From positions 6,797 through 70,796 of the forward strand of contig JBAYIR010000004.1 in the NCBI GenBank assembly GCA_041665505.1: a DNA stretch of 64,000 bases, given 5' to 3'. The notes beneath the pieces are model-generated. The model was not told the DNA's origin and searched no databases. It worked only from the letters and a program-made list of their open reading frames with translations. Source of the DNA: Patescibacteria group bacterium. GTDB lineage: Bacteria > Patescibacteriota > Patescibacteriia > UBA1558 > GWA2-36-10. Shown here piece by piece: positions 8,876-43,053 of the stretch; the first letter of the stretch is position 1; every line of letters begins with the position of its first letter. A program made the translations under genes and the position numbers.

Positions 8876-8935
8876 AATTTTTAAATATGTTTATTGATAA
8901 AAATATAGTATAATAATATTATTGAAATAAATATT

Positions 8936-9739: not shown

Positions 9740-9814
9740 GGCCTTAGGACTGATATTATTTTTAAAACCGTCTAGTATAACTCGGCGGTTTTTTGATTTT
9801 ATGCTATAATTTAT

Positions 9815-24355: not shown

Positions 24356-24700
24356 ATGCCAGTAGTCAAAAATGACAATAAAAACAAGGCTAATAATGAG
24401 TGGCTAAGACAAGGAATGATGATGTTTGCCGAAAGTACCGGCTGGATCGCTTTCCCAGTCATAGGAGCTCTGTTTTTAGGTCAATGGCTAGATGAAAGAC
24501 AAGGCACAGGGCAGTTATATTTTTTAAGTATTACAGCTCTAGCTTTTATACTTTCTTCTGTGGGTATAGGCATGACAGGCGTAAAGTATATGAATAGAAT
24601 TGAAAAAGATGAAGCTGGGAAGAAAAATAATAAATCAAATAGCTTAGACAAAACCACACAGGAGAAAAAACAAGAAAATGAGCCAAGAAACGATAAATAG
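24356..24700 (+). CDS. AtpZ/AtpI-like small membrane protein preceding the ATP synthase operon
   Basis: Position immediately upstream of atpB; two TM helices and a Lys-rich tail, as in ATP-synthase protein I families. Confidence 0.4.
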   Translation: MPVVKNDNKNKANNEWLRQGMMMFAESTGWIAFPVIGALFLGQWLDERQGTGQLYFLSITALAFILSSVGIGMTGVKYMNRIEKDEAGKKNNKSNSLDKTTQEKKQENEPRNDK

Positions 24701-25580
24701 CAATCAAAACAATATAGAAGATACTTCGCGCATAGTTGAAGAAATTTTGGGTGAAGACTTAAATCAGGAAGCTGGCGCTCATACAGCTGAAGGAGCTGAG
24801 CATGAGGAGCACGAGCATACTTTATTTGCCGAAACAGTTTTTCAGGTTGGTGATTTTCCAATCACCAATTCACTGCTGACATCTTGGGTAGCAGTTTTTT
24901 TAATTATTATTTTGTCATTGGTCATTCGAGCTAAAAATAGTCGCATCCCATCAGTTTTCCAAAGTTTTATGGAAATAATTATTGATGGCGCACTGGGTAT
25001 GATGGATTTAGTGACCAATGATAGAGCTAAAAGTAAAAAAGTATTTCCAGTTATATTTTCAATTTTTCTTTTTGTGCTTATCAACAACTGGTTGGGGTTG
25101 TTACCGGGTTTAGGCTCCATTACTTATAATGGAGTAGCCTTACTAAGAGGGGGTACAGCTGATTTAAATACCACATTAGCTTTAGGGTTGTTTTCCGTAG
25201 TATCGGCCAATATTTTTGGTATGCTGGTAGTCGGTGGTTGGAATTATTTTAATAAATTTGTAAACATAAAAGCATTAATAGAAATACCTGGTAAAATTAG
25301 GCACGAACCAACCATTGTTTTGGTTAATCCTATAACTTTTTTTGTAGGATTAATTGAGATAGTGTCAGAAGTGGCCAAAGTAGCTTCACTATCATTTAGG
25401 TTGTTTGGTAATATTTTTGCTGGGGAAGTATTGATTGCTTCTATTTCAGCTTTAGTGGCTTATGGTGTGCCGCTACCATTTATGTTTTTAGAAGTAATTG
25501 TCGGAATTATTCAGGCCTTGATATTTTCCATTCTGACTTTGGTTTATTATACTATTGCTTCAGTTGAGCATGAACATTAA
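24678..25580 (+). CDS. atpB: F-type ATP synthase Fo subunit a
   Basis: Signature RLFGNIFAGEVL and polytopic membrane profile. Confidence 0.85.
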   Translation: MSQETINSNQNNIEDTSRIVEEILGEDLNQEAGAHTAEGAEHEEHEHTLFAETVFQVGDFPITNSLLTSWVAVFLIIILSLVIRAKNSRIPSVFQSFMEIIIDGALGMMDLVTNDRAKSKKVFPVIFSIFLFVLINNWLGLLPGLGSITYNGVALLRGGTADLNTTLALGLFSVVSANIFGMLVVGGWNYFNKFVNIKALIEIPGKIRHEPTIVLVNPITFFVGLIEIVSEVAKVASLSFRLFGNIFAGEVLIASISALVAYGVPLPFMFLEVIVGIIQALIFSILTLVYYTIASVEHEH

Positions 25581-26027
<447 letters not shown>

Positions 26028-26111
26028 TCGATTGTTTTGAGTGCTCTCTATATATGAGGGCACGACTAAGCAATTAATCTCTCGACATAGTTCGAGATAG
26101 AAGAAAATAAT

Positions 26112-26606
26112 ATGGAAATTTTAGAATTATTTGGAGTCGATTGGAAACTAATGACAGCTCAGCTAGTCAACTTTATTATAGTTATCTTGGTACTTTGGTT
26201 TTTTGCTTTAAAACCATTGACTAAGACTATGCAAAAGAGAAATGATGAAATTTTCAAAGGCTTATCAGACGCCAAAGCCGCTGAAGAAAGATTGCAGCAA
26301 GTTGAAAAGGAAGTCAAAGAAAAACTCATTGAGACTAAAGGTCTAGCCTCTGGTATTTTGGAAGAAGCTAAAAAACAATCAGAAAAAAGTAAACAAGAAA
26401 ACTTGACCAAAACCAAAGAAGAAGTCGCTAAATTGATTGTCAAAGCTAAAGAACAAATTGCTAGCGAAAAAGATAATATGTTAGTGGAAATCAAAGGTGA
26501 AGTATCTAGTATGGTAGTAGTGGCTTTGGAAAAGATTTTATCAGGTGGGCTGACAAAAGATATAGACAAAAAGTATATTGATAAAGCCTTAAAAGATTTA
26601 AAATAA
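26112..26606 (+). CDS. atpF: F-type ATP synthase Fo subunit b
   Basis: N-terminal TM then long charged helix; operon position. Confidence 0.7.
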   Translation: MEILELFGVDWKLMTAQLVNFIIVILVLWFFALKPLTKTMQKRNDEIFKGLSDAKAAEERLQQVEKEVKEKLIETKGLASGILEEAKKQSEKSKQENLTKTKEEVAKLIVKAKEQIASEKDNMLVEIKGEVSSMVVVALEKILSGGLTKDIDKKYIDKALKDLK

Positions 26607-27007
26607 TGAAAAAAGACCAAGCAAAAATTTTGGCTGCCGCTTTGTATAAAGCTAGTGGTGATAAAAAAGGCAAAGAATTAGATAAAGTGATTGCCAATTT
26701 TTCGGCTTACCTCAGTCAGCACCGTTTGGTGCCTATGATTCCTAATATATTAGGGCAGTTGGAAAATATTCATTTTTTAAAAGAAGGTATCATAGCTACC
26801 AAGATAACTAGTCGTGAAGAACTAGCTCAGGCGGAAATAAAAAAGATTTCTGATTTGATAAAAGCTAAAACCAAAAAAGAAGTAGTAGTTAAAACAGAAA
26901 TAGATAAAGAACTTATTGGTGGGGTAGTAGTAAAATATAATGACAAAATTATAGATATGTCCATCAAGCATCAATTAAACAATTTAGCAAAACAATTAAG
27001 CAATTAA
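26606..27007 (+). CDS. atpH: F-type ATP synthase subunit delta (short)
   Basis: Operon position between b and alpha; OSCP-like C-terminal [20 protein letters not shown]. Confidence 0.6.
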
Positions 27008-27011
27008 TAAT

Positions 27012-28544
27012 ATGTCTTACGATCATTTAGTAAAAAGTTTGCAAAAACAACTGGAAAATTGGCAATCAGATGTCAAAGAAGAAACAGCTGGTGAAGTTAT
27101 TGAAGTAGGTGACGGTATCGCCAAAGTATCTGGTCTATCAGATGTCATGGCTTCTGAGATGCTTGAATTTGAGACCAAAGCCGGAGATAAAATCTATGGT
27201 GTGGTTTTGAACTTAGAAGAATTTGCCGTTGGGGCTATTATTTTGGGTGAATATGGAGCCTTAAAAGAGGGCGACAAAGTAAAAAGAACCAAGCGTATTT
27301 TGGAAGTACCAGTTGGAGAAGCTGTGATTGGCCGAGTAGTAAATGCTTTAGGTCAACCAGTTGATGGTAAAGGTAATATAAAATCCAATGAGTTCTATCC
27401 AGTAGAAAAAATTGCTCCTGGAGTTATTACTCGTCAGTCAGTCTTTCAGCCACTAGAAACTGGTATCAAAGTAATTGATGCTATTATCCCTATTGGTAAA
27501 GGCCAACGTGAGCTTATTATTGGTGATCGTCAAACTGGTAAAACGGCTTTAGCTATTGATGCTATTATCAATCAAAAAGGCAAAGATGTTATTTGTATTT
27601 ATGTGGCTATTGGTCAAAAAGAATCAAAAGTAGCTAGAATCGTAGCTAAATTAGAAGAGACTGGAGCAATGGATTACACCACAGTAGTTTTAGCTGGTGC
27701 TTCTGAATCAGCTGCTCTTTCCTATATTGCTCCTTATGCTGGATGTTCTATGGGAGAATACTTTATGGACAAAGGCAAAGATGTTTTAGTGATATATGAT
27801 GATTTATCAAAACACGCTGTAGCTTATCGTCAGATTTCATTGCTACTTAAAAGACCACCAGGACGTGAAGCCTATCCCGGTGACGTTTTCTATGTGCATT
27901 CTAGATTATTGGAGCGAGCTGCTAAGATGAGTGATGAACTAGGTGGTGGATCACTAACAGCCCTTCCTATTATTGAAACTCAAGCTGGTGATATTTCAGC
28001 CTATATTCCTACCAATGTGATTTCTATTACTGATGGTCAGATTTTCTTGGAAACAGATTTGTTTTACAAAGGTATCAGACCAGCTCTATCTACTGGTTTA
28101 TCAGTTTCTCGTGTCGGTAGTGCCGCTCAGAAAAAAGCTATGAAAAAAGTAGCTGGTAAATTGAAAATGGATTTGGCTCAATATAGAGAGTTAGAGGCCT
28201 TTGCTCAATTTGGTAGTGATTTGGATGAAGCCACCAAGCAACAGCTTGATCGTGGGGCTAGAGTGACCGAGATTTTGAAGCAAGGTCAATTTAAACCACT
28301 TTTACAAAGCAAACAGATATCTATAATTTATGCTGCTGCCAATGGTCATCTAGATAAAGTGCCTGTAGCCAATTTAGCTGCTTTTGAACAAAAATTATTT
28401 AGTAAAATGGAAGCGGAAGGCAAAGACGTTTTAGATAATATTGAAAAAACTGGTTTACTATCCGAAGCGGATGAACAAAAATTAAAAAATATAATTAATG
28501 ATTTGGTAGAGTTAGAAGAAAAAGTCGGAGAAGACAAAAAATAA
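27012..28544 (+). CDS. atpA: F-type ATP synthase subunit alpha
   Basis: Walker [14 protein letters not shown]; 510 aa. Confidence 0.9.
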
Positions 28545-28577
28545 TTAATTTATTTGTCATCTGACAGAAATAAATAT

Positions 28578-29492
28578 ATGCCCCAGGCAAGTAGAGATAT
28601 ACAAAGAAGAATAAAATCGGTCAAGAATACCAAAAAAATTACCAAGGCTATGGAATTGGTCTCAGCCGCTAAAATGCGTAAAGCTGTATCGAAAGTATTA
28701 GCTTCTCGTTCTTATTCTGATTTGGTTTGGGATACAGTGCTTCATTTGGTCAAAAAAGTTGATACCAATAAACATTTATTTTTTAAAGAACCAAAAGAAG
28801 TCAAAAAAGTAGCCGTAGTGATAGTGAGCACCAATCGAGGTCTGTGTGGTAGTTTTAATACCCAATTAGTAAATAAAGTAATAGAATCTATTAAACTCCA
28901 TCATCCCGAAGTAGTCCAGACCGATATTATTACCTGTGGTACTAAAGGTAGAGATGAAGTCAGACGACATAAAGTAAATCTAGTAGCTGATTTTCATAAA
29001 GAAGATATTACAGCTAGTTCAGAAGATATACGGCCAATTGCTCATATGATTACCAAAGATTTTATAAGTGCTAAATATGATAAAATTTTTATAGCTTATA
29101 CTGATTTTATGTCTTCTTTAAAGCAAGTACCTCATGTCAAACAATTATTGCCTATAGTAGCTGAGATAGATGCTAGATTAGGACACATTAGTCATGATAA
29201 AGATAAAGTAGCCAAAATAAATGTAGACAGTTTTGCAGAATTTATTTTTGAACCAGGTATGAAAAGTATTTTAGATGCTTTTTTGCCAAGACTTTTGGAA
29301 GTACAAATTTATCAATCAGTCTTGGAATCAGAAGCATCAGAGCACAGTGCTCGCATGTTTGCTATGAGAAATGCTACTGACGCTGCTGGTGAGATGATCA
29401 GCGAATTAACCTTGGCCTATAATCAAGCTCGTCAGGCCAATATTACTGCTGAGATTGCTGAAATTGCTGCTGGTAGTGCCGCTTTAGAATAA
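28578..29492 (+). CDS. atpG: F-type ATP synthase subunit gamma (start at MPQASRDIQRRIKSV)
   Basis: N-terminus RDIQRRIKSVKNTKKITKAMELVSAAKMRKA. Confidence 0.85.
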   Translation: MPQASRDIQRRIKSVKNTKKITKAMELVSAAKMRKAVSKVLASRSYSDLVWDTVLHLVKKVDTNKHLFFKEPKEVKKVAVVIVSTNRGLCGSFNTQLVNKVIESIKLHHPEVVQTDIITCGTKGRDEVRRHKVNLVADFHKEDITASSEDIRPIAHMITKDFISAKYDKIFIAYTDFMSSLKQVPHVKQLLPIVAEIDARLGHISHDKDKVAKINVDSFAEFIFEPGMKSILDAFLPRLLEVQIYQSVLESEASEHSARMFAMRNATDAAGEMISELTLAYNQARQANITAEIAEIAAGSAALE

Positions 29493-29558
29493 ATTTAATA
29501 ATAAAATAATAATATTTACCCCGTTAGAAATTTACAATTGCGGGGACGTGAAGATTAA

Positions 29559-30938
<1,380 letters not shown>

Positions 30939-30960
30939 TCTTGTGTTCTAGGATAATATT

Positions 30961-31395
30961 ATGAAACAAATTAAGTTAAAAATAGTAACTCCAGAGAAGA
31001 TACTTTTTGAAGATATAGTATCTCAGATTTCTGTTTCTACAATTATGGGTGAGATTACTATTTTACCAAATCATATACCACTGGTGTCTCAGCTAGCCTC
31101 AGGAGAGATAGTTATTAAAACTGAGCAAGGTAAAGAAGATTTTATGGCTGTTTCTGGTGGTTTTATAGAAGTATTGCCAGATCAAGTAGTTATTTTGGCT
31201 GATACAGCTGAGCGGGCAGAGGATATTGATGAAGCTCGGGCCGAAGAAGCTCGTCAGAAGGCGGAAGAGATTTTGAAGACCAAAGTGGCTGACGCCGAAG
31301 GCTTTGCTATGTTTACCGCCAAAATAGAAAAAGAATTAGCTCGACTCAAAGTCGTTAGAAAACATAAAAATAAAAGAATAAATCCAGGTAATTAA
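30961..31395 (+). CDS. atpC: F-type ATP synthase subunit epsilon
   Basis: N-terminal beta-sandwich LKIVTPEKILFEDIVSQISVSTIMGEITILPNHIPLVS. Confidence 0.8.
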   Translation: MKQIKLKIVTPEKILFEDIVSQISVSTIMGEITILPNHIPLVSQLASGEIVIKTEQGKEDFMAVSGGFIEVLPDQVVILADTAERAEDIDEARAEEARQKAEEILKTKVADAEGFAMFTAKIEKELARLKVVRKHKNKRINPGN

Positions 31396-31870: not shown

Positions 31871-31965
31871 AGTCTTTTAAATACGTTAAAAAGCCATGTT
31901 TTTGGTTGACTAAATGATGAATTTAGTATACTATATTGTTTTAAAAACTAGCGAGTAGTAATAAG

Positions 31966-32508
31966 ATGATTAAACTTTTTTTAAAAATAATCAAAACTTC
32001 CCAAAATACTATTAAGGTTGATGAGTTTGATAGTGATGGAATAAAATTTGAATCACTTGGTAAAAAGACGAGATCCAAAATCACACATTTATTTGGTGGA
32101 TCTTTGGCTATCAGACAAATAGATGCTGGTTCAGATAATTCAGCTGAACAAGAGCTAGTCGCTTTATCCAATACTTTTTATGATTTGGAGCGTTTTGGTA
32201 TTCATTTTGTAGCTTCCCCTAAACATGCTGATATGCTCTTTGTCACTGGTCCAGTGACACGCAATATGGCTGAAGCTCTTCGCCGAGCGTATGAGGCTAC
32301 ACCCGACCCAAAGATTGTAGTGGCTGTTGGTGATGATGCTATCAGTGGAGGTATATACAAAGGTTCTTATGCTATTGTGGGTGCGGTTAGTGATGTTTTG
32401 CCGGTGGATTTTTCTATCCCCGGAGATCCGCCATCACCTAAAGTCATTCTTGGTCACTTACTTCGTATTATGAAGGAATTAGAAAATCAGTCATTCAAAA
32501 AGAAATAA
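31966..32508 (+). CDS. NuoB / hydrogenase small-subunit (HycG/EchC)-like protein with all [4Fe-4S] cysteine ligands replaced; protein contains no Cys
   Basis: FGIHFVASPKHADMLFVTGPVTRNMAEALRRAYEATPDPKIVVAVGDDAISGG...IPGDPPSP aligns to NuoB ..SPRQADVMIVAGT..KMAP.LR..Y.QMPEPK.VI.MGSCANGGG...PGCPP with C->D/S/L. Confidence 0.7.
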   Translation: MIKLFLKIIKTSQNTIKVDEFDSDGIKFESLGKKTRSKITHLFGGSLAIRQIDAGSDNSAEQELVALSNTFYDLERFGIHFVASPKHADMLFVTGPVTRNMAEALRRAYEATPDPKIVVAVGDDAISGGIYKGSYAIVGAVSDVLPVDFSIPGDPPSPKVILGHLLRIMKELENQSFKKK

Positions 32509-32509
32509 T

Positions 32510-34555
32510 ATGTTAGAACTAGCAGCATCTTCTATTGGTCTGGTCATTTTAATAGGGTTATTTACTGTTGGAGCAGTAGGCTCATTATTTTTGAGAACAG
32601 ATAAGCCAGCTAATGTTTGGAGTAGTTTTTTTGCTATTATCGGCTCTGTTTGGGGTATATTATTTGCCAGTCTGGTATTCTTTTTCAACCGGGAAATTAT
32701 TTTTTCCTTGACTTCAAGTATTTTTCCACTTTTGTCATTTTCATTTCATATTGATAAGTTAGCTAGTTTTTTTATTTTTACTATTTCACTCATTGCCTTA
32801 TTTTGCTCTATTTATGGGGCTGGTTATATCAAACATTTTTATAAAAAATATGACATTGGTGCTTTTGGATTTTTCTACCACCTGTTTATTTTAGGAATGA
32901 TTTCAGTAGTTATAGCGGCCAATGCTTTATTTTTTTTGCTAGCCTGGGAAATGATGTCTTTAGCCTCATATTTTTTGGTAGTTTATGATCGACATGATAC
33001 GCATAATGTAAAAGCTGGGTTTTTATATTTAGTTATGACTCATGTTGCTACAGCTTTTATTATTGTGGCCTTTTTACTACTGTATAAATTTACTGGGTCA
33101 TTTGATTTTGCTTTAATTCGCTCTAATGCCGAGTTGATTCCTCTCTGGTTAAAAAATACTGTTTTTGTGTTGACCTTAATTGGTTTCGGTACCAAAGCCG
33201 GTATTATACCATTTCATATCTGGTTACCTAGTGCTCATCCAGCTGCACCTTCGCATGTCAGCGCCCTTATGTCTGGTGTCATGATAAAAACTGGTATTTA
33301 CATGATGATTAGAATTTTTTTGGATTTATTACAGCCAGTGCCAGCTTGGTGGGGGCTTACTTTACTAGTAATTGGCTCAGTGTCATCTTTACTAGGTGTT
33401 CTTTACGCTTTGACTGAGCATGATATCAAGAAACTACTGGCTTATCATAGTATTGAAAACATTGGTATAATTTTATTGGGTTTAGGTAGTGCCTTAACTT
33501 TTTATTCTTTGGGGATGCCGTCTTTCGCTTTATTGGGGTTAGTAGCCGCGCTTTTTCACACTTTAAATCACGCTACTTTTAAATCACTATTGTTTTTGAG
33601 TGCTGGTTCAGTAATCAATCAAACGCACACGCGCAACATGGAAGATTATGGTGGTTTGATTAGGTACATGCCCCAGACAGCAGTTTTCTTTTTGATTGGC
33701 TCAATGGCAATTTCCGGCTTGCCTCCTTTCAATGGATTTTTTAGTGAGTGGCTCACTTTTCAGGCTTTGTTTCAAGGTATTATGCATTTTGCCATGATGG
33801 AGAAATCAATTTTTCTTTTGGCCGCAGGTGCCTTGGCTTTTACCGGTGGTTTAGCTTTAGCTTGCTTTGTTAAAGCTTTTGGTGTGATATTTTTGGCCAG
33901 ACCAAGAACTAAAGAAGCAGCTAACTCTCAAGAATCAGCTTGGTCTTTGCGTGTGGGTATGGCATCATTAGCTATATTGTGCTTATTATTTGGCTTATTT
34001 TCTGGCTCGCTAGTATCTTGGTTTACCAGAGTGGCTAATGGTCTAAGAATTTTTCAAGGTATTAATTCTTTTGTATCATCGCCAACTAATCAAATATTGG
34101 TTGCCGACAATAACTTTGCTTCCGTATCGGCCGCTGGTATTCTAGCTTTTTTACTTATCGTCTTGGTGTTAGTGCTTTTGGTATTCAAATATGTTATTCA
34201 TCGCCAACAAAAAATAAAAGTTGGTGCTACTTGGGATTGTGGAGTTGATTTGACTCCGCGAATGGAGATAACTGCTACTGGTTTTGCAAGATCAATTATT
34301 TTGATTTTTAAAGGAGTATTGAGACCTAGTATTCAGCGTGAGGTTGAATATCATGATTCGCAAACTCGCTATTTACCAAAAACTATTACAGTGGTGTCAG
34401 GTATCAATAATGTATATCAGCAATATTTTTATCAGCCTTTGTCCAAAAATGTTATTGCATTTGCACAGTCTGTCAGAAAAATTCAGAATGGTAATGTTAA
34501 TCTTTACATTTTATATATTTTTATTGCTTTAATTATTCTATTATTTTTTGTATAA
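32510..34555 (+). CDS. NuoL/MrpA/HyfB-like antiporter-type membrane subunit
   Basis: About 16 TM helices; motifs HIWLPSAHPAAPSHVSALMSGVMIKTGIY and LLAYHSIENIG typical of complex I antiporter-like subunits. Confidence 0.7.
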   Translation: MLELAASSIGLVILIGLFTVGAVGSLFLRTDKPANVWSSFFAIIGSVWGILFASLVFFFNREIIFSLTSSIFPLLSFSFHIDKLASFFIFTISLIALFCSIYGAGYIKHFYKKYDIGAFGFFYHLFILGMISVVIAANALFFLLAWEMMSLASYFLVVYDRHDTHNVKAGFLYLVMTHVATAFIIVAFLLLYKFTGSFDFALIRSNAELIPLWLKNTVFVLTLIGFGTKAGIIPFHIWLPSAHPAAPSHVSALMSGVMIKTGIYMMIRIFLDLLQPVPAWWGLTLLVIGSVSSLLGVLYALTEHDIKKLLAYHSIENIGIILLGLGSALTFYSLGMPSFALLGLVAALFHTLNHATFKSLLFLSAGSVINQTHTRNMEDYGGLIRYMPQTAVFFLIGSMAISGLPPFNGFFSEWLTFQALFQGIMHFAMMEKSIFLLAAGALAFTGGLALACFVKAFGVIFLARPRTKEAANSQESAWSLRVGMASLAILCLLFGLFSGSLVSWFTRVANGLRIFQGINSFVSSPTNQILVADNNFASVSAAGILAFLLIVLVLVLLVFKYVIHRQQKIKVGATWDCGVDLTPRMEITATGFARSIILIFKGVLRPSIQREVEYHDSQTRYLPKTITVVSGINNVYQQYFYQPLSKNVIAFAQSVRKIQNGNVNLYILYIFIALIILLFFV

Positions 34556-34557
34556 GT

Positions 34558-35490
34558 ATGATGATTTTTATTTGGATGTTACAAATTATTTTGGTGCCAG
34601 CTATTTCTCCGTTAGCCATTGGTCTAATTAATAAAATCAAGGCTCGATTACAAAATCGTCGAGGAGCAAGTATTTTCCAGCCTTATAAGGATATTTGGAA
34701 ATTATTGCACAAAGATGAAGTAGTAAGTCGTGATGCTTCTTGGATTTTTTATTATGCGCCTTATATAGTATTTACTATCACTTTGATTTTAGCAGGCAGC
34801 CTTCCTTTATTTGCCTCATTTTTGAATAATATTATGACTGGCGATTTATTGACGATTGTTTATTTGATTGCTTTTGGTACTTTCTTTTTGGCACTAGCAG
34901 GCTTAGATATTGGTGGAGCTTTTGGTGGTTTCGGTTCTAGTCGTGAAATGACCATATCAGCTTTGGCTGAGGGGGGATTGATTTTTTCTTTATTGGCTGT
35001 AGCTATAAATGTCGGCACTAGCAATCTTTTTGAGATGTCTACTCTTGGTTTTTCATTTTATGATCAACATCTTTTACCAACACTACTAGCCTTAGCTGGA
35101 TTTTTTGTGGTATTGCTCGCAGAAGCAGCTCGTTTTCCTTTTGATAATCCAGCTACTCATTTAGAGCTAACTATGGTTCACGAGGCTATGATTTTAGAAT
35201 ACTCTGGTAAAAGATTAGCTTTAATGGAGTGGTCGGCTGCTAATAAGCTGATTTGTTTTATTGCTATTGGTGCTAATATTTTTTTCCCTTGGGGTTTGGC
35301 TACTAGTGTAGGAGTCAGTGTTTTGATATTAAGTTTAATAATATTTATTTTAAAAATATTTATTTTTTGTGCAGTCATAGCTTTGATTGAATCCAGTATG
35401 GCGAAATTTAGATTTTTTCGTCTGCCAGATTTACTCTTTATTTCTTTTATTCTTAGCGTGATGGCCATCAGCCTCACCCAAATATTATGA
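34558..35490 (+). CDS. NuoH/HycD-like membrane subunit
   Basis: RRGASIFQPYKDIWKLLHKDEV matches the HycD/NuoH N-terminal pattern; 8 TM. Confidence 0.65.
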   Translation: MMIFIWMLQIILVPAISPLAIGLINKIKARLQNRRGASIFQPYKDIWKLLHKDEVVSRDASWIFYYAPYIVFTITLILAGSLPLFASFLNNIMTGDLLTIVYLIAFGTFFLALAGLDIGGAFGGFGSSREMTISALAEGGLIFSLLAVAINVGTSNLFEMSTLGFSFYDQHLLPTLLALAGFFVVLLAEAARFPFDNPATHLELTMVHEAMILEYSGKRLALMEWSAANKLICFIAIGANIFFPWGLATSVGVSVLILSLIIFILKIFIFCAVIALIESSMAKFRFFRLPDLLFISFILSVMAISLTQIL

Positions 35491-36134
35491 GTTTATTTAT
35501 TTCACAATTTTTATTAGCAATTATTTTTCTCACGATTGTTTTTTTGCATGGTGCCAAAAAAAATATGGGAGCAGTGCTTGCTTATAGATTGCAGTCATTA
35601 GCGGTAGTAGCTTTTACATTTAGCTCTTTTTTGGAGACTAGAGATATACTTTTACTTATTGTCTGTTTAGTTATCTTTATAGTAAAAGTTATTTTTGCGC
35701 CAATGTTTTTAGCACGTTTGATTAAAAAACATAAACTTACTTATTCGGTCAGTTCTTACCTCAATGCACCTCTGACTTTGATCATGATCGCCATTTTTAC
35801 TGCTATTGCTTATTCACAAAAATTTGTGCCTTTAACCAATCTCATGCCTGGCCATCAGACATTATTACATCTAGCTCTAGCTTCAATTTTTCTTTCTCTC
35901 TTTTTGATAGTCAATCGCAAAGGTGTGCTCTCTCAGATTATTGGTGTGTTGTCGCTAGAAAACAGTATAGTGACTTTTGTTTTTTATGCTGGTTTGGAGC
36001 AATCACATAGTTTGCAGCTAGGTATTTTATTTGATATTTTTATTTGGATTATTATTGCTATTGTATTTATGTCTATGATTTATCGCCACTATGATTCTTT
36101 GGATGTCAGTCGAATGAAGCAATTAAAAGATTAA
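35487..36134 (+). CDS. HyfE/NuoK-like small membrane subunit
   Basis: 215-aa polytopic protein with IGVLSLENSIVTF motif, located between the NuoH-like and NuoN-like genes as hyfE is in hyf operons. Confidence 0.4.
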   Translation: MSLFISQFLLAIIFLTIVFLHGAKKNMGAVLAYRLQSLAVVAFTFSSFLETRDILLLIVCLVIFIVKVIFAPMFLARLIKKHKLTYSVSSYLNAPLTLIMIAIFTAIAYSQKFVPLTNLMPGHQTLLHLALASIFLSLFLIVNRKGVLSQIIGVLSLENSIVTFVFYAGLEQSHSLQLGILFDIFIWIIIAIVFMSMIYRHYDSLDVSRMKQLKD

Positions 36135-36139
36135 CGCAT

Positions 36140-37582
36140 ATGGAATTACTATTTATTTTTTTACCATTATTAATTGCGGTTTTAGTGGGCTTGCTATCCA
36201 GACAAAGACTACTTATTGAAATTACTTCTGGTGTCGCTATAGGTCTTGCTTTTATTGCAACTATTTTAATAGCTCAAAATGTAGCTGCTTTTGACAGTTA
36301 TAGTCCTTGGCCTATTTTTTCTGTTGATGCACTAGGGGCTATAGTAATGCTTATTATTGCTTGTGTTGGTTTGATGGCTAGTATTTATTCTATTCCGTAT
36401 TTGCGCCAGGAAAGTGCTAAAGGTATCATTGGCTTTACTAGAGTTAGACAATATTTTAATTTATTGAATTTGTTTTTGGCCGTTATGTTTTTTGCCGTGA
36501 CCGCTAGCAATCCAGTAATGACTTGGATTGCCATAGAGCTAACTACTTTATCAACGGCTTTTCTGATTAGTTTTTACAATAAAGCTTCATCTATTGAAGG
36601 AGCTTGGAAATATTTAATTATTAATTCAGTTGGCTTGTTATTGGCATTTTTTGGGACCTTGTTATATTTGACTTCATTAGGAATAAATAGTGATAGTACT
36701 TTTGCTACTTGGAGCGCTTTACTGACTAATGCTCACAATCTAGATCCTCTGATTGCCAAACTAGCTTTTATTTTTGTTTTTATCGGCTATGGTGTTAAAG
36801 TTGGTCTTGCCCCAATGCATACTTGGCTACCTGATGCACATAGTAAATCACCAGCACCAATTAGTGCGCTTCTTTCGGGGGTACTTTTAAATGTTGCTTT
36901 TTTTACGGTGTTAAAATTTAAAATTATCACAGATGTGTCTGTCGGAGGGACGTTCTCAAGTACTATATTGATTAGCTTTGGCTTGTTGTCTATATTTATA
37001 GCAGCCATGATTATTCTGGTCCAAAAAAGTTACAAGCGACTATTGGCTTATTCTAGTATTGAAAATATGGGGATTATGTCACTTGGTTTTGGCTTTGGTG
37101 GCTTTGGTGGTTTTGGCGCTATTCTTCATATGCTATATCATTCGTTTATAAAATCAGCTCTATTTTTACTATCGGGTAATTTTTTACTCAAGTATAGCTC
37201 TGCTAAAATTAAAAACGTGCGTGGTGCTTTATTAGTTATGCCTCTGGCTAGCGTCCTGTTTCTAGTGGGGATTTTTGCTATTGCTGGTGTTCCGCCTTTT
37301 GGTATTTTTTTAACTAAATTATTTATTATCAGTGCAGGCATGTCTACTTATCCTATTGTTAGTATTGTCGCTGTAATTTTATTTTCCGTGGCTTTTGTTG
37401 GTTTATTTAAGCATGCTGGAGCTATGATTTTTGGTGAGCCGTCAGCTGAGATGAAGAAAGAAAAAGAAAATATTTGGTTGATTTTACCATCATTGGTTTT
37501 ACTGTTAACAATTTTCTTTTTGAGTTTTCAGCTGCCAAATTTTTTGTCAGTATTAATTAATGAAGCAGTTAAAGGGTATTAA
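36140..37582 (+). CDS. NuoN/NuoM/MrpD-like antiporter-type membrane subunit
   Basis: HTWLPDAHSKSPAPISALLSGVLLNVAFF and LLAYSSIENMG motifs. Confidence 0.7.
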   Translation: MELLFIFLPLLIAVLVGLLSRQRLLIEITSGVAIGLAFIATILIAQNVAAFDSYSPWPIFSVDALGAIVMLIIACVGLMASIYSIPYLRQESAKGIIGFTRVRQYFNLLNLFLAVMFFAVTASNPVMTWIAIELTTLSTAFLISFYNKASSIEGAWKYLIINSVGLLLAFFGTLLYLTSLGINSDSTFATWSALLTNAHNLDPLIAKLAFIFVFIGYGVKVGLAPMHTWLPDAHSKSPAPISALLSGVLLNVAFFTVLKFKIITDVSVGGTFSSTILISFGLLSIFIAAMIILVQKSYKRLLAYSSIENMGIMSLGFGFGGFGGFGAILHMLYHSFIKSALFLLSGNFLLKYSSAKIKNVRGALLVMPLASVLFLVGIFAIAGVPPFGIFLTKLFIISAGMSTYPIVSIVAVILFSVAFVGLFKHAGAMIFGEPSAEMKKEKENIWLILPSLVLLLTIFFLSFQLPNFLSVLINEAVKGY

Positions 37583-37585
37583 TAT

Positions 37586-39154
37586 ATGAATAAAGAAATA
37601 ATTAAACAATATTTACCAGACAATGTTGATGTGAATTTTTTTGCCAACGTCGCTGTCTTTGAAATAGCTACAGCCAATATTAAAGAAGTAGTAAATTTTT
37701 TGCGTAATGACAAAAATCTTTCATTGAAGTTGGTTACAGCTACCGATGAGCGCAAAGATAGTCATTGTTTTAAAATTTGGTATGTTTTTGGCCTACCTAA
37801 AGAAAATATATTTATTGTGCCTTTTATTAAATTAGAAGATACTTTGGAATTTCCTTCGGTCGCTTTGGCCTGCCAAGAAGCTTTGAATTATGAGCGTAAG
37901 ATCCAAACTTTTTTTGGTTTAGTACCAGTGGGACATACTGATCCTAGGTCTATTATTTTGCATGAAAATTGGCCAGCTAATATTTTCCCTTTGAGAAAAG
38001 ATTTTGACTGGCAATCCAGACCAGCTGTAGTCGAAGGGACTTATCAATTTAATCGGGTCAAGGGCGAGGGGATATATGAGATACCAGTCGGTCCTATTCA
38101 CGCTGGTATTATTGAGCCAGGGCATTTTCGTTTTAGCGTGGCTGGAGAAACTATAGTGTCATTAGAACCGCGTTTGGGTTTCACACACAAAGGTAGTGAA
38201 AAGTTGTTTGAACATTTTTCATTAGCCGATAGTGTGCGACTGGCTGAAAAAATTTCTGGTGACAGCTCTCTTAGTCACTCTTTGGCTTTTTGTCAGACCA
38301 TAGAGAGTTTAGCTGATTTGAAATTGCCAAAGCGGGCTGCTTATTTGCGGGTCATTTTTGCTGAGCTAGAGCGTCTAGCCAATCACTTTGGCGATATTGG
38401 GGCTATTATGCTGGACACGGGATTTAATTTTGGTGGTGCGCAAGGATCAAGATTGCGTGAGATGATTATGCAAATTAACGAGCGTTTGACTGGTAGTAGA
38501 TTTTTGCGTTCAGTCAATACTATTGGTGGAGTGCAAAAAGATTTAACAGAGGCTGAAATAAGCCAGCTAGCCAAAAGCTTAGAGATAATAGCCAAAGATT
38601 TTTCTGAAGTCATAGAAATTGCTGAAAATAGTTCATCATTAGTCAATCGTCTTCAAGACACTGGTAAGCTTACTCAGGCTTTTGCTAAAAGTCATGGCGT
38701 AGTTGGTGTGGCGGCTAGAGCTACTGGTATCGGATGTGATACGCGGGCTGATTTTCCTTATGCCGCTTATCAAGAATTATTTTTAGATAGAATTGAAACA
38801 GAAAACACTGGTGATGTTTGCGCACGATTTTATGTCCGCATCAAAGAAGTCAGAGCGTCCATAGCTATAATTGATGGTGCTTTGAAAGCTATACCTAAGG
38901 GACTCATCAAAACTAGTGATACTATTGTTCTCAAAAAAAATGCTTGTGCTATAGCTCTGGTAGAGGGTTGGCGAGGAGAGATTTTGTATTTTATCACCAC
39001 CGACGCGCAAGGGCAGATTAGTAGAGTTGTACCTCGTGATCCTTCTTTTCTGAATTGGAATGTCTTGGGTAAAGTTGGTGTAAATAATATAGTACCAGAT
39101 TTTCCTTTGATTAATAAAAGTTTTAATTTGTCCTATACGGGTAATGATTTGTAG
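37586..39154 (+). CDS. NuoC-NuoD fusion / HycE-like large subunit lacking both NiFe-binding CxxC motifs
   Basis: NuoC-like ALNYERKIQTFFGLVPVGHTDPRSIIL; NuoD-like VGPIHAGIIEPGHFRF...GFTHKGSEKLFE; N-terminal RxCGxC position reads RLAEKISGD; C-terminal DPCxxCxxH position reads DPSFLNWNV. Confidence 0.7.
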   Translation: MNKEIIKQYLPDNVDVNFFANVAVFEIATANIKEVVNFLRNDKNLSLKLVTATDERKDSHCFKIWYVFGLPKENIFIVPFIKLEDTLEFPSVALACQEALNYERKIQTFFGLVPVGHTDPRSIILHENWPANIFPLRKDFDWQSRPAVVEGTYQFNRVKGEGIYEIPVGPIHAGIIEPGHFRFSVAGETIVSLEPRLGFTHKGSEKLFEHFSLADSVRLAEKISGDSSLSHSLAFCQTIESLADLKLPKRAAYLRVIFAELERLANHFGDIGAIMLDTGFNFGGAQGSRLREMIMQINERLTGSRFLRSVNTIGGVQKDLTEAEISQLAKSLEIIAKDFSEVIEIAENSSSLVNRLQDTGKLTQAFAKSHGVVGVAARATGIGCDTRADFPYAAYQELFLDRIETENTGDVCARFYVRIKEVRASIAIIDGALKAIPKGLIKTSDTIVLKKNACAIALVEGWRGEILYFITTDAQGQISRVVPRDPSFLNWNVLGKVGVNNIVPDFPLINKSFNLSYTGNDL

Positions 39155-39205
39155 ATGTTAGTATAAGAGGTCATGTTAGACATAGTAAAAATTTTATATT
39201 TTTAT

Positions 39206-39233
39206 AAAAACCCCCTATTTTAGGGGGTTTTTA
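39206..39233 (+). terminator. strong rho-independent terminator ending the atp/complex-I-like transcription unit
   Basis: aaaaaccccctattttagggggttttt; 7-bp G/C stem flanked by A/T runs (bidirectional in appearance). Confidence 0.7.
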
Positions 39234-39379
39234 AAATTTTATATATTGACTATTTGGCTAAGGTATGATACAATTTTCCTTCATTATAGAATGTGCTATT
39301 AGAAGCTCAGTTAAAATAAGATGTAATAAATTACCAATTATTTTATCTGGGCTGCTAGTCAGCTCAATTAGTTCAATTC

Positions 39380-39925
39380 ATGACAGGACTGTCTTCTACA
39401 GGAGGTTGGCTCTTGAATAAGTGTTACGATGCCACTGGCGCCCCGTGCATGGATGGAGATTATTTTCCGCTTTTTCATGCGAAAGTAATCTCCATGTGTG
39501 GTCGGCTTGTTGACTTACTCCCTCAACCTGGGGGTGCCAAAACCCTCAGAACAGCCAATCTCTCGGCTCATGAGTTTGCCGGCAGATTCGTCAGCGTTTC
39601 TGTCGCCAAGCATGGTATCAGAACTATCGTCATTGGCACCCACCTTCAATGTGCCGCCTACGAGAAGTTTGGGCTTTCTTTGTCCGAAGAAGAAGCACTC
39701 CAGCGCCAGCATATTGAGAGAGCAGTTCGCTTTCTTAATGATTACGTCCCGATGGGGATCCAACACTACCTCAAGGAGGAAAAACTTCCCGAGCATGAAG
39801 TGCAGAACTTGGAGACCGTTTTGGAGAGCGGTATAATCATCCAAGCTCTGCTCATCAAGCCGTACGATATGTCGCGGCGCATCAAGGAACCTTCTGAAGA
39901 GTGTTTTGTGGAGCAAGTGCTCTGA
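39380..39925 (+). CDS. hypothetical protein encoded in GC-rich island B (alternative TTG start at 39413 preceded by AGGAGG with a 7-nt spacer)
   Basis: 170-181 aa ORF; GC content far above the backbone; canonical SD; followed by its own terminator; no family recognised. Confidence 0.4.
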   Translation: MTGLSSTGGWLLNKCYDATGAPCMDGDYFPLFHAKVISMCGRLVDLLPQPGGAKTLRTANLSAHEFAGRFVSVSVAKHGIRTIVIGTHLQCAAYEKFGLSLSEEEALQRQHIERAVRFLNDYVPMGIQHYLKEEKLPEHEVQNLETVLESGIIIQALLIKPYDMSRRIKEPSEECFVEQVL

Positions 39926-40010
39926 CCTACAATGTCCTTTTCATTTTTGTTGCCACCGCCCTTATCACTGGTGGCCCAGTTCTATACTTCTGCCCAAGCG
40001 CGGGCAGGGG

Positions 40011-40047
40011 ACTCTCGTCTTTAGAGGGCAGACGAGAGTTTTTTTTA
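40011..40047 (+). terminator. rho-independent terminator after the island B gene
   Basis: actctcgtc tttagagggca gacgagagt + ttttttttt (perfect 9-bp stem + T9); preceded by a second hairpin ctgcccaagcgcgggcag. Confidence 0.7.
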
Positions 40048-40080
40048 CTTTTGATTTTTCTATTGTTATGCGCTAAAATT

Positions 40081-43053
40081 ATGTATATGCCAATGGACTT
40101 AAATTACTTAAATAAAGCACAAAAACAAGCCGTTAGCCATGATCAGGGGCCGGCTATTTTAATAGCTGGGGCTGGTACTGGTAAAACTACAGTTATCACT
40201 TCTCGCATTGCTTATTTGATAGAGCAAAAAAAAGCTCAGCCAGATGAAATATTAGCTGTTACTTTTACTGAAAAAGCGGCTGGTGAGTTGGCGGAGCGAG
40301 TAGATAAGCTTTTGCCTTTGGGCTATAGTGATTTATGGATTCATACTTTTCATGGTTTTGCGGAAAAGGTTTTGAAAAACTATGCTTTGGAAATTGGTTT
40401 GTCCAATGATTTCAAATTATTAGATCAAACTGCCGCTTGGGTTTTGCTTAGAGAAAATTTGGACAAGTTTGATTTGGATTATTACGCCCCTTTGGGTAAT
40501 CCCACCAAATTTATTCACGCTTTGCTCAGTCATTTTTCTCGGCTGAAAGACGAAGTAGTTTATCCAGCAGAGTATCTCAAATATGCTCAAGATTTACATC
40601 TAGATACTGATCAAGCTGGTGATAGAGAGGAAAGAGCTATGGAAGTAGCTAGAGTGAGAGAAGTAGCCAATGCTTATCATGTTTACCAAGAGCTACTTTT
40701 GGAAAAGAATGCTTTGGATTTTGGTGATTTGATAAATTATACTTTGGAACTTTTCAAAAAGCGTCCGCAGATTTTGAAAAAATTTAGGCAGCAATTTAAA
40801 TATATTTTGGTGGATGAGTTTCAAGATACCAACTGGGCTCAGTATGAACTGATAAAGATTTTAGCTGCTCCAAAAAATAATGTCATGGTGGTTGGTGATG
40901 ATGATCAAGCTATTTATAAATTTCGGGGAGCAGCCATATCAAATATTTTAAATTTTAAAAAAGATTATAGTAGTCGGAAGTCCACCTCTGCTAAGGCTTC
41001 GGTAAAGACTCAACCGGCGCTTTGTGAGATTTTTTTAAATGACAATTATCGCAGTGGTCAGAAGATATTGGATACAGCTTATAATTTCATTCAGCAAAAT
41101 GATCCAGATAGATTGGAATATCAATATAAAAAGAAAAAAACTCCGCTCAATAAAAAACTTAAGAGTCATAGCACTAGTGATGGTTCAGTAGATGTTATTT
41201 CCTTTGTGGATAAAAACGCAGAAATAGATGGCATCTTGGCCAAGATAATAGATCTAAAACAAAAAGACAAAGAAGCTACTTGGTCTGATTTTGCTATACT
41301 AGTCAGAGCCAATGATCAAGCTCAAGGCTTTGTGTCTATGATGAGAAAAATAGGTATTCCTCATCAATTTATGGCTTCCCGTGGTCTTTATGCTCAGGAT
41401 ATTGTCCAAGATATTATGGCTTATTTGAAATTATTGGATAATTATCATGAGTCGTCCGCTTTTTTTAGAATATTATCTTTACCTATTACTGGTTTAAATA
41501 TTGAGACTATTATTAATCTCAATCACTTAGCTGGCAAAAAAGCTTGGAGTTTATATTATACGGCCAAAGTTTTTCGCCAACATATCAATTTGCCCTTGGC
41601 AGACCAAAAAATAATTGATAAAATAATTTTAGATATTGATAAGCACACCAAATTGTCCAAAGAGCAGCCCGTTTCCCAAGTAGTCTACAATTGGTTAGAG
41701 GATAGTGGTTATCTCAATATGTTGACTTTGGAGCAAAATCAATATAATAAAGACCAGTTGCATTTCCTCAATCAATTTTATAGAAAAATAAGAGCTTGGG
41801 AAGAAGAGTCTATTGAAGATACTTCTACTCATAATTTTTTGGAGACACTGGAGATGGAAATCCAATCAGGAGAAATGGGGGCAATGCAGTTTGATGCTGA
41901 AGCTGGGCCGGATGTAGTCAAAGTCATGACTGTCCACGGAGCCAAAGGCTTGGAATTTAAATATGTTTTTATTAGCAATTTAGTCCATTTGAGATTTCCT
42001 TCGACTGAGCGTCGTGATCCAATAGAGGTGCCTGATACTTTCATTAAAGAAGATTTACCATCAGGTGATGCTCATTTACAAGAAGAGCGTCGTTTGTTTT
42101 ATGTGGCTATGACTAGAGCCAAAGAAAAAGTCTATCTGACTTGGGCTAAAAATTATGGCGGAGCTACTAGTAAAAAACCATCTCGTTTTATAGATGAAAT
42201 TGCTATTTTGAGTCAAGAAATAAATACTCCTATTAAAGAACCAAGTAAGATTAATACCAAAAAAAGTAAAGCTAATTATCCTATCCCAAAAATATTTTCT
42301 TTTTCTCAGTTAAGGGCTTATGAAGCTTGTCCTTGGCAGTATTTTTATAATTTTATAGCCAAGATACCGACCAAAGGTAGTGCGCATTTTAGTTTTGGTA
42401 AGACTATGCACTCTACCTTACAGAAATTTTATCAATTAATCATCAATAATTCTGAACTAGGACAAGGCGACTTATTTTCTAAGGATAAAAAAATAGTCAT
42501 GCCGGGTGAAAAAGAGCTATTGGCTTTTTATGAAGAGTCTTGGATTGATGATTGGTATGAGAGCGACAGCCAAAAACAAAAATATTATCAAGATGGTATT
42601 CGTATTCTGAAGGATTATTATAAGCAGTATAAAGATAATTTTCCCATACCTTTGTTTTTGGAAAAAGGTTTTACTATCAAAATAAAAGATTATAGTCTGC
42701 GGGGTGTTTTTGATAGAGTAGATACTGACAAGACTGCTTGGAAAATAATTGATTACAAAACTGGTCAAGCTAAAGATAAACTGACTTTTGAAGATAAAAA
42801 ACAGCTGCTCATTTATCAGATTGCAGCTGAAGAAGTATTTAAACAGCCTGTCAAAGAACTTACTTTTTTTTATCTTAGCAACAACAGTGCAGTGTCATTT
42901 GTGGGTAGTGAAAAAGAAATAACTAAAGTCAAAGATTGGATAAAAACGACTATTGATAATATTAACAGTCATGATTTTACCGCTACACCAGGTCATGTCT
43001 GCGCCACTTGTGATTTTAGGTCAATTTGCCCTTATGCTAAATTGAATAAATAA
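40081..43053 (+). CDS. UvrD/PcrA-family SF1 helicase fused to a C-terminal Cas4/RecB-like PD-(D/E)xK nuclease domain with four conserved Cys (AdnB/AddB-like architecture)
   Basis: Walker A AGAGTGKTTVIT; motifs VDEFQDTN, VMTVHGAKGLEF; C-terminus CPWQYFYNFI...DYKTG...C..C..C (CATCDFRSICPY). Confidence 0.75.
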   Translation: MYMPMDLNYLNKAQKQAVSHDQGPAILIAGAGTGKTTVITSRIAYLIEQKKAQPDEILAVTFTEKAAGELAERVDKLLPLGYSDLWIHTFHGFAEKVLKNYALEIGLSNDFKLLDQTAAWVLLRENLDKFDLDYYAPLGNPTKFIHALLSHFSRLKDEVVYPAEYLKYAQDLHLDTDQAGDREERAMEVARVREVANAYHVYQELLLEKNALDFGDLINYTLELFKKRPQILKKFRQQFKYILVDEFQDTNWAQYELIKILAAPKNNVMVVGDDDQAIYKFRGAAISNILNFKKDYSSRKSTSAKASVKTQPALCEIFLNDNYRSGQKILDTAYNFIQQNDPDRLEYQYKKKKTPLNKKLKSHSTSDGSVDVISFVDKNAEIDGILAKIIDLKQKDKEATWSDFAILVRANDQAQGFVSMMRKIGIPHQFMASRGLYAQDIVQDIMAYLKLLDNYHESSAFFRILSLPITGLNIETIINLNHLAGKKAWSLYYTAKVFRQHINLPLADQKIIDKIILDIDKHTKLSKEQPVSQVVYNWLEDSGYLNMLTLEQNQYNKDQLHFLNQFYRKIRAWEEESIEDTSTHNFLETLEMEIQSGEMGAMQFDAEAGPDVVKVMTVHGAKGLEFKYVFISNLVHLRFPSTERRDPIEVPDTFIKEDLPSGDAHLQEERRLFYVAMTRAKEKVYLTWAKNYGGATSKKPSRFIDEIAILSQEINTPIKEPSKINTKKSKANYPIPKIFSFSQLRAYEACPWQYFYNFIAKIPTKGSAHFSFGKTMHSTLQKFYQLIINNSELGQGDLFSKDKKIVMPGEKELLAFYEESWIDDWYESDSQKQKYYQDGIRILKDYYKQYKDNFPIPLFLEKGFTIKIKDYSLRGVFDRVDTDKTAWKIIDYKTGQAKDKLTFEDKKQLLIYQIAAEEVFKQPVKELTFFYLSNNSAVSFVGSEKEITKVKDWIKTTIDNINSHDFTATPGHVCATCDFRSICPYAKLNK

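Follow-up and report, generated by a model that had tools for sequence, protein, structure and literature searches.

The window considered here is a stretch of 64,000 nucleotides from a Patescibacteria group bacterium (contig JBAYIR010000004.1, positions 6,797 to 70,796). It contains six tightly packed genes, named below after the subunits that their products resemble, in the order NuoB - HyfB - NuoH - HyfE - HyfF - NuoCD-like. Judged from the encoded proteins, these genes are predicted to form a complex without any redox cofactor. The features of the operon described below all lie on the forward strand.

The sixth and last gene (37586..39154) encodes the large subunit, called NuoCD in the following. 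It begins with an ATG and specifies a protein of 522 amino acids, a NuoC+NuoD fusion of the HycE/HyfG type. An identical protein is present in public data, where it is annotated as 'NADH-quinone oxidoreductase subunit C [Patescibacteria group bacterium]'. Pfam recognizes a Complex1_30kDa domain at residues 26-144 (2e-18), followed by a Complex1_49kDa domain (5e-43). In a HMMER search, the closest solved structure is that of HycE from the E. coli formate hydrogenlyase (7z0s_E, E = 9.5e-69, residues 33-519); MbhL, Nqo4, and a solved NuoCD come next. An AlphaFold2 (AF2) model of the monomer has a predicted local distance difference test score (pLDDT) of 82 and a predicted template modelling score (pTM) of 0.86, and it reaches a template modelling score (TM) of 0.86 when superposed on HycE. 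A first-pass annotation of this DNA had proposed a NuoC-NuoD fusion that keeps the HycE-type architecture. The pair of Pfam domains, the HycE alignment, and the AF2 superposition all bear this out.

The pLDDT of the monomer falls below 50 in two segments, residues 154-200 (38045-38185) and 498-522 (39077-39151). These are the two most conserved parts of the sequence, namely the C-terminal tail (498-522) and the region of the beta1-beta2 loop (154-200). Low values of this sort are expected where subunits meet, and the model suggests that both segments fold only when packed on the NuoB and NuoH partners.

The first gene (31966..32508) encodes a NuoB/HycG-like small subunit of 180 amino acids (Pfam Oxidored_q6, 8e-25), which has no fused ferredoxin domain and contains no cysteine, as the first-pass annotation had stated.

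Four membrane subunits are encoded in between. The HyfB/HycC/NuoL-like, antiporter-like subunit (32510..34555, 681 amino acids; Pfam Proton_antipo_M, 6e-60) scores 675 bits against the NCBIfam model 'hydrogenase 4 subunit B' (cut-off 667) and matches HycC (7z0s_C) at 2e-83. Its family-conserved residues are E147, K229, K260, K358, and E413. Next comes a NuoH/HycD-like subunit of 310 amino acids (34558..35490; Pfam NADHdh, 1e-40), in which conservation reaches 95% or more at 34% of the positions, among them E130, E138, E189, E203, E209, and E214. The HyfE-like membrane subunit (35487..36134, 215 amino acids) has a NuoK-like C-terminal half and conserves E158 and E171. It matches Pfam Oxidored_q2 just under the cut-off (9e-6) and the NCBIfam hydrogenase 4 membrane subunit likewise under the cut-off (6e-17). 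The second antiporter-like subunit is HyfF/NuoM/N-like and 480 amino acids long (36140..37582; Pfam Proton_antipo_M, 4e-50; NCBIfam hydrogenase 4 subunit F, 8e-123, under the cut-off), with E133, K220, K236, K261, and K338 conserved.

The canonical ionisable residues (Glu/Lys/His) of complex I and Mrp are kept in both antiporter-like subunits, and they are kept in the NuoH-like and NuoK-like subunits as well. The residues typical of MrpA and MrpD, a Glu in transmembrane helix 5 (TM5), a Lys in TM7, and a Lys or Glu in TM12, are represented by E147, K229, K358, and E413 in the HyfB-like protein and by E133, K220, and K338 in the HyfF-like protein.

A promoter-like site (TTGACT-17-TACTAT, 31906..31934) lies just upstream of the NuoB-like gene. 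About 50 nucleotides past the NuoCD stop codon, a terminator-like hairpin with a 13-bp stem and a following T run (39205..39233) closes the six-gene unit. Both come from a consensus scan only, which for the promoter-like site is weak evidence. Rfam and tRNA searches gave no matches in the window.

Loss of the NiFe, quinone, and iron-sulfur sites

The large subunits of NiFe hydrogenases hold their metal centre with two pairs of cysteines, one in an N-terminal motif (RxCGxCxxxH) and one in a C-terminal motif. Six cysteines occur in NuoCD (61, 96, 236, 384, 412, 454), none of them at a NiFe-ligand position. At the first site (residues 221-232, 38246..38281) the protein reads EKISGDSSLSHS. The HMMER alignment pairs 'RVCGICGFAH' of HycE with 'KISGDSSLSH', so that the two cysteines correspond to S224 and S227. 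Compared with HycE, MbhL, and a Cys-bearing homolog from Sporomusa, the motif has become K222-I-S224-G-D-S227-S-L-S-H231. Within it, G225 occupies the position of Tyr87 in complex I, and D226 is specific to complexes of the Ehr type (energy-converting-hydrogenase-related). The first-pass annotation had located this replacement correctly.

The second site was misplaced. The annotation had read DPSFLNWNV (residues 485-493, 39038..39064) as the equivalent of DPCxxCxxH. This segment aligns instead with 'AATYANWPT' of HycE and 'APSFVNLQS' of Nqo4; it belongs to a conserved R-x-(P/A)-S-(F/Y)-x-N-W/L motif that HycE and NuoD have in common and that is separate from DPCxxC. Alignments to HycE and to the Sporomusa homolog put the true equivalent, 'NLSYTGNDL', at the extreme C-terminus. 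The full motif is 'SFNLSYTGNDL' (residues 512-522, 39119..39151), which forms the end of the protein. Here 'LDPCYSC' of HycE pairs with 'FNLSYTG' (residues 513-519), the cysteines are replaced by S516 and G519, and NDL and the stop codon follow. Where hydrogenases have (D/E)(P/L)CxxCxx(H/R), NuoCD thus has N514-L-S516-Y-T-G519-N-D-L522-stop. The Sporomusa malonica protein, which is 42% identical to NuoCD and has all four cysteines ('ERICGAC' and 'ELCYACLDR' before the stop), independently fixes this placement of the C-terminal motif.

The alignment to NiFe large subunits therefore finds no cysteine pair at the NiFe positions. With all four ligands replaced, NuoCD cannot bind a NiFe centre. Two claims of the earlier annotation, that both CxxC motifs are missing and that the protein is not a hydrogenase, stand even though one motif had been sought in the wrong place.

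The quinone site of complex I has been lost too. In a gap-free HMMER alignment with Nqo4 of T. thermophilus (2fug_4), I176 stands in for His38 and G225 for Tyr87, and both replacements are invariant or nearly so in the family. The His/Tyr pair of the NuoD quinone pocket, which the annotation had suggested inspecting, is thus absent, and NuoCD is not a quinone reductase. I176 lies in the hydrogenase-type beta1-beta2 loop (residues 169-183, 38090..38134), which reads GPIHAGIIEPGHFRF. The whole of this segment is almost invariant in homologs, with E177 near-invariant and H180 invariant. One complex I residue does have a counterpart: Asp139 of Nqo4, the partner of His38, is matched by D277 (38414-38416), which is invariant in the clade.

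The small subunit of hydrogenases carries a proximal [4Fe-4S] cluster bound by four cysteines. In the NuoB-like protein of the window these positions are D57, A60, D124, and D154, as judged from alignments to MbhJ and HycG and from the family alignment. Pfam searches of the operon and the flanking open reading frames (ORFs) detect no ferredoxin-like subunit of the NuoI, HycF, HyfH, or HyfA kind. The ligands of the complex I N2 cluster, a NuoI with two [4Fe-4S] clusters, and a NuoEFG input module are likewise not found in the operon or its flanks. Among the scanned called ORFs of the window (at least 90 amino acids) there are no hyp maturation genes, no gene for a maturation endopeptidase, and no redox-partner genes; the content is otherwise housekeeping. 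The suggestion that the B/D interface, at the former quinone/NiFe site, is free of cofactors is thereby supported from both sides, by a NuoB without Fe-S ligands and a NuoCD without NiFe ligands, and by the missing ferredoxin subunit. Since the NiFe, quinone, and NuoB [4Fe-4S] ligands and the ferredoxin subunit are all absent, the redox chemistry of hydrogenases, complex I, and classical Ehr complexes is impossible for this complex.

The altered sites are strongly conserved. More than 100 clusters (90% level) have 63-78% identity to NuoCD, and in 120 homologs within this range the replaced motifs are nearly invariant. Their consensus is E-K-I-S-G-D-S-S-F-S-H-S-L-A-F-C at the first site and I-N-K-S-F-N-L-S-Y-S/T-G-N-D-L-stop at the second. 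The residues fixed at the former metal site are S224, D226, S227, S228, D277, S516, N520, and D521, together with the retained E177, H180, and H231.

This conservation extends over very different genomes. In 24 species-representative genomes the subunits are 50-68% identical, while the GC content ranges from 0.30 to 0.56. The genomes include Patescibacteria labelled Magasanik-, Staskawicz-, Falkow-, Kerfeld-, Davies-, and Saccharibacteria. Others are labelled Raoultibacter, Fibrobacteria, Desulfobacterales, Syntrophus, Gammaproteobacteria, and Bdellovibrionales, although labels of metagenome-assembled genomes (MAGs) may be imperfect. Wherever a locus of the clade holds the complete operon, its genes stand in this one order, as they do in four further loci. 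Across phyla, conservation of 95% or more is seen at 31% of the positions in NuoCD, compared with 23-34% in the other subunits apart from HyfE (16%), which puts NuoCD among the best conserved. The peripheral B/CD module is conserved as strongly as the membrane part. The cluster is missing from every one of the clade's 18 NuoB-like proteins, which have D, T, or S at position 57, C, A, or E at 60, D or G at 124, and D at 154.

Relationship to Ehr complexes and genomic setting

An exhaustive HMMER search of 1.84 billion cluster representatives gave 1029 matches below 1e-30, and the best 150 were sorted by the four ligand columns. Among these best 150 of 1029, a large Cys-less group has the patterns 'E[RK][IV]SGD[STEN]..' and 'SFNLSY[SA]GNDL' before the stop. 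It is interleaved with true hydrogenases that have all four cysteines ('ERICGxC' and 'SFELCYxCxDR' before the stop). Cys-less representatives number more than 100 in all, and the 82 of them with an S/A-x-S-G pattern share the 'SGD' and 'NLSY.GNDL' signatures with NuoCD. Gains of the Cys-less group over the nearest hydrogenases are D226 (94%), D277 (90%), N514, and the C-terminal Leu. The position of D277 is a Gly in the nearest true hydrogenases, and the Asp is a complex-I-like trait.

On this sequence evidence, the complex is of the Ehr type, Hyf/group-4f-like, and descended from energy-converting hydrogenases. By its ligand-column motifs, the group-4-type large subunit falls inside the Cys-less clade. 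The accompanying HyfB-, NuoH-, HyfE-, and HyfF-like membrane subunits and the small subunit form the same set as in a classical Ehr locus (L026). Both the identity of the complex and its cofactor-free status are held with high confidence. One feature of the classical Ehr complexes examined, a small subunit in which Fer4 domains and NuoB together bear Fe-S clusters, is missing from the window clade.

An example of a classical Ehr complex is P0134, whose large subunit is 43% identical to NuoCD and has the ligand pattern S-E-S-G. Its gene order is HyfB-NuoH-HyfE-HyfF-NuoCD-[Fer4x2-NuoB], and all four NuoB cysteines and eight ferredoxin cysteines are present. The classical loci L026 and L027 end with a Fer4x2-NuoB fusion that has all four NuoB cysteines, and the Sporomusa hydrogenase has the same gene order and fusion as P0134. 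Classical Ehr complexes have therefore retained the electron-transfer chain. In the window clade, by contrast, the small subunit has shifted to the front of the operon, its ferredoxin domain has been dropped, and the cluster ligands have been lost. A second Cys-free clade (L031, 43% identity) also has the NuoB-first order, and its cluster positions read S/E/N/N.

The original papers on Ehr complexes are reportedly those of Coppi (2005) and of Marreiros et al. (2013). In the literature these complexes are placed near group 4f, without CxxC motifs, and called unknown in function (PMC10284858; bioRxiv 10.1101/765248; PMC4758237; PMC7894505). Jaffe et al. 2020 reported a monophyletic Ehr clade of the candidate phyla radiation (CPR) that lacks the metal-binding cysteines and 'likely cannot interact with H2' (PMC7304191). 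The core observation of Cys loss is therefore already known. No description of the Fe-S loss, the near-invariant replaced site, or the linkage to ATP synthase was found in the literature searched, a search outside which the original papers of 2005 and 2013 lie. Three features appear to be new beyond that literature: the complete lack of cofactors, a remodelled pocket that is nearly invariant, and the synteny with ATP synthase.

This synteny is visible in the window itself. An F1Fo ATP synthase operon (24678..31395, forward strand) lies directly upstream of the six-gene unit. It consists of the genes for subunits a (24678-25580), c (25815-26027), b (26112-26606), delta (26606-27007), alpha (27012-28544), gamma (28554-29492), beta (29571-30938), and epsilon (30961-31395). 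The identities of alpha, gamma, beta, and epsilon rest on clustering with ATP synthase genes from other loci; those of a, c, b, and delta come from a reading of the translations and from the Pfam-annotated gene order in L031.

An F1Fo ATP synthase lies within 9 kb of the operon in nine of the 24 loci of the clade, and also in the second Cys-free clade (L031). In an all-against-all clustering of flanking ORFs it is the only recurrent neighbour, besides a helicase common to close relatives. At least four arrangements occur. The operon may follow atpC (the window, L002, L012, and L023) or be convergent with the ATP synthase genes (L014). It may also lie inside the atp operon, either in the gap between atpG and atpD (L015, 957-12380; L017, 9-5009) or between atpD and atpC on the opposite strand (L016, 1971-16686). 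For a genome of about 1 Mb, chance adjacency is roughly estimated at a few percent, a figure to be read with the caution that shared ancestry inflates the observed count.

The c-subunits of the window ('AEAIAIY', 25815-26027) and of L031 ('AEAVAIY', 13323-13550) lack the Gln and Ser/Thr of the Na+ signature, as read by eye from the motif. The Fo part is thus probably H+-coupled, and a Na+-coupled ATP synthase was rejected for these two loci. In L031, the operon is followed by genes for a CBS-domain protein and a CitMHS/ArsB-type anion transporter (8693-10479) and then by the ATP synthase operon.

In the window, the operon has on either side a gene of the 'putative carbonic anhydrase' family Pro_CA_2 (PF20393; 31421-31870 and 39380-39925; 29.9 and 34.1 bits, cut-off 30). 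The two are paralogs that have diverged very far. Read by eye, the upstream protein keeps a CxDxR-like 'KCVDFR' and lacks HxxC. The downstream gene, which encodes 'THLQC', lies in a patch of raised GC content (0.42 compared with about 0.35), and a consensus scan places a promoter-like site (TTGACT-17-TACAAT with a TG extension, 39246-39274) ahead of it, right after the hairpin. A carbonic anhydrase was rejected as a conserved partner of the operon: phmmer and tblastn found no such genes in 24 other loci, Pfam searches of 70 flanking ORFs returned only the two of the window, and the downstream gene stands behind the terminator-like hairpin.

Further downstream, ORF 39901-43053 encodes a UvrD/PcrA-type helicase fused to a PD-(D/E)XK nuclease (AddA/AddB-like). 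Its GTG start is probably too early, since the Pfam helicase domain begins at residue 70; a cluster of Met codons at residues 61-65 (about 40081-40093) is a likelier start.

On the Fibrobacteria contig (L008, 10700-14707), the cofactor-free operon is followed, about 5 kb downstream, by a second, paralogous Hyf/Ehr-like cluster with 28-40% identity, whose large and small subunits are past the end of the locus. In a Firestonebacteria-labelled MAG (L033, 2751-14567), the operon directly follows a gene for an NrfA-type cytochrome c552 and precedes genes for ACS/CODH and Fe-S proteins. This setting is redox-rich, unlike that of the Patescibacteria loci.

Possible functions of a cofactor-free complex

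The most likely function of the complex is that of a redox-independent, Mrp-like cation/proton transporter. This model is put forward tentatively, with a likelihood judged to be an even chance or slightly less. In this model the complex would be a secondary ion transporter, acting either as a cation/proton antiporter or as a converter of ion gradients. The hydrophilic cavity of the former active site, at the junction of NuoB, NuoD, and NuoH, would serve as the cytoplasmic site of proton or cation entry, loading, or gating. Being polar and acidic, this B/CD cavity would feed the 'E-channel' of NuoH. In Patescibacteria without an electron transport chain, the complex would cooperate with the H+-type F1Fo ATPase and use or reshape the gradient which that enzyme builds up or consumes.

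Several points weigh against such a transporter. The function of Ehr complexes is called unknown, and there is no transport assay for any of them (PMC10284858; bioRxiv 10.1101/765248). Mrp works without a NuoB/C/D/H module, so that an antiporter role alone leaves the conservation of B/CD and of the former active site unexplained. Because Mrp needs no B/CD cap, the strong conservation of the pocket leaves room for another coupling chemistry. Subunits of the MrpE/F/G type, which are implicated in Na+ handling, are absent from the operon. The second Cys-free clade does not keep D57, D124, and D154 of NuoB, which makes this Asp triad doubtful as a specific cation site. Proximity to ATP synthase genes is common without being universal: none lies within 10 kb of the operon in L032-L034, and in loci labelled as other phyla no gene of this enzyme was found beside the operon. 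Finally, ion specificity is not readable from sequence.

The room left by the pocket could be filled by a primary ion pump, driven by a non-redox reaction that consumes or releases protons or by the binding of a ligand in the remodelled ex-NiFe site. An example would be the interconversion of CO2 and bicarbonate, as in cyanobacterial NDH-1 Cup or in DAB, with the gradient used by the adjacent ATP synthase. The near-invariance of the former active site, the gain of the two Ehr-specific residues D226 and D277, a peripheral module as conserved as the membrane module, and the linkage to ATP synthase all fit such a pump, as do the two putative Pro_CA_2 genes beside the operon in the window. These genes, however, recur near the operon in no other locus examined, the downstream one is set apart by the hairpin, and the upstream protein has no HxxC zinc motif on reading by eye. 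The pocket itself has no recognisable catalytic motif of a known enzyme, and conserved neighbours point to no candidate substrate. A pump of this kind is judged quite unlikely. The same low likelihood attaches to a wider proposal, in which the cofactor-free 'universal adaptor' B/CD/H is the working heart of a new energy converter and not a passive remnant. Ion translocation by the Hyf-type membrane arm would then be driven by, or itself drive, a chemical reaction without redox steps or the binding of an ion in the acidic, Ser-rich pocket (E177, D226, D277, S224, S227, S516, and the C-terminal NDL). In Patescibacteria without an electron transport chain, the converter would be a dedicated partner of the F1Fo ATP synthase and would either supply the gradient for ATP synthesis or turn the proton gradient made by the ATPase into another one that can be used.

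Alternately, the complex may still be a redox enzyme whose Ser/Asp-lined sites bind an unrecognised metal or cofactor, or on whose B/CD module an electron-transfer partner encoded elsewhere docks. Related complexes of the classical Ehr kind still have their whole Fe-S chain and presumably perform redox chemistry at a NiFe-less site, C60 of NuoB is retained in 12 of the 18 clade members, and one locus has the operon between the cytochrome c552 and ACS/CODH genes. But C60 is Ala or Glu in the other six members, including that of the window, Asp, Thr, Ser, or Gly has taken the place of three or all four NuoB ligands, and none of about 28 loci shows an input module of the Fer4 or NuoEFG type. Fe-S and NiFe centres are poorly bound by Ser, Asp, and Gly, and Patescibacteria are largely without electron carriers; both points also count against a redox role, which is judged very unlikely. 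An uncoupled role, as a regulated proton or ion conduit or as an accessory of the ATP synthase (in pH homeostasis, controlled leak, or membrane structure), would agree with operons embedded in ATP synthase operons and with the missing energy-input module. It would hardly call for the full set of conserved residues in two antiporter-like subunits and the E-channel, and some copies of the operon stand apart from ATP synthase genes or belong to other phyla, so that this role too is considered unlikely. The loss of every catalytic ligand might even mark a decaying hydrogenase relic, a pseudo-enzyme without current function. Yet all six ORFs are intact, the gene order is strictly conserved, amino-acid identity holds across genomes of widely differing GC content, and the replaced motifs are nearly invariant. 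A relic is thus extremely improbable: the conserved replaced motifs and ionisable residues and the identity across genomic backgrounds indicate a functional machine under purifying selection.

How a local chemical event at the NuoB/NuoD/NuoH junction is converted into long-range ion pumping is debated for complex I, membrane-bound hydrogenases, and Mrp. The clade provides a natural and strongly conserved version of this junction in which every redox cofactor has been removed and the ion-translocation apparatus is whole. If the complex does transport ions, it would show what the 'universal adaptor' does once redox chemistry is taken away, and its six subunits would make a simple system for the study of structure and mutants. 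Patescibacteria have no respiratory chains and have kept their ATP synthase; a complex that occurs repeatedly beside or inside the atp operon bears on the question of how their membranes are energised. The fully cofactor-free Ehr variant is distinct enough to deserve experimental attention.

Comparison with known systems

The E. coli hydrogenase-4 (Hyf) and formate hydrogenlyase (Hyc, PDB 7z0s) complexes are homologous to the window complex subunit for subunit (HyfI, B, C, E, F, and G) and have the same NuoC-NuoD fusion. They differ in having a NiFe site, Fe-S clusters, the ferredoxin subunits HyfA/HyfH/HycB/HycF, and HyfD, all of which the window complex lacks. NuoCD also lacks the C-terminal extension for proteolytic maturation, and no hyp genes appear in the window ORFs scanned.

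Respiratory complex I, whose core of NuoB, CD, H, K, and L/M/N is the 'universal adaptor', shares the fold and the module composition of the Q-module plus membrane arm, and D277 of NuoCD corresponds to D139 of Nqo4. The window complex differs in having I176 and G225 in place of His38 and Tyr87, and in having no N2 cluster and no NuoI, NuoE/F/G, NuoA, or NuoJ genes.

The Mrp cation/proton antiporter, finally, is redox-independent and has two Proton_antipo_M subunits and a NuoK-like subunit, and MrpA and MrpD are among the PDB matches. Mrp has no homologs of NuoB/C/D/H. It is encoded by a seven-gene operon with MrpB/E/F/G, while the operon described here has six genes, none of them identified as MrpE/F/G-like. 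The complex is thus not a member of the Mrp family, but by analogy it may work like Mrp.

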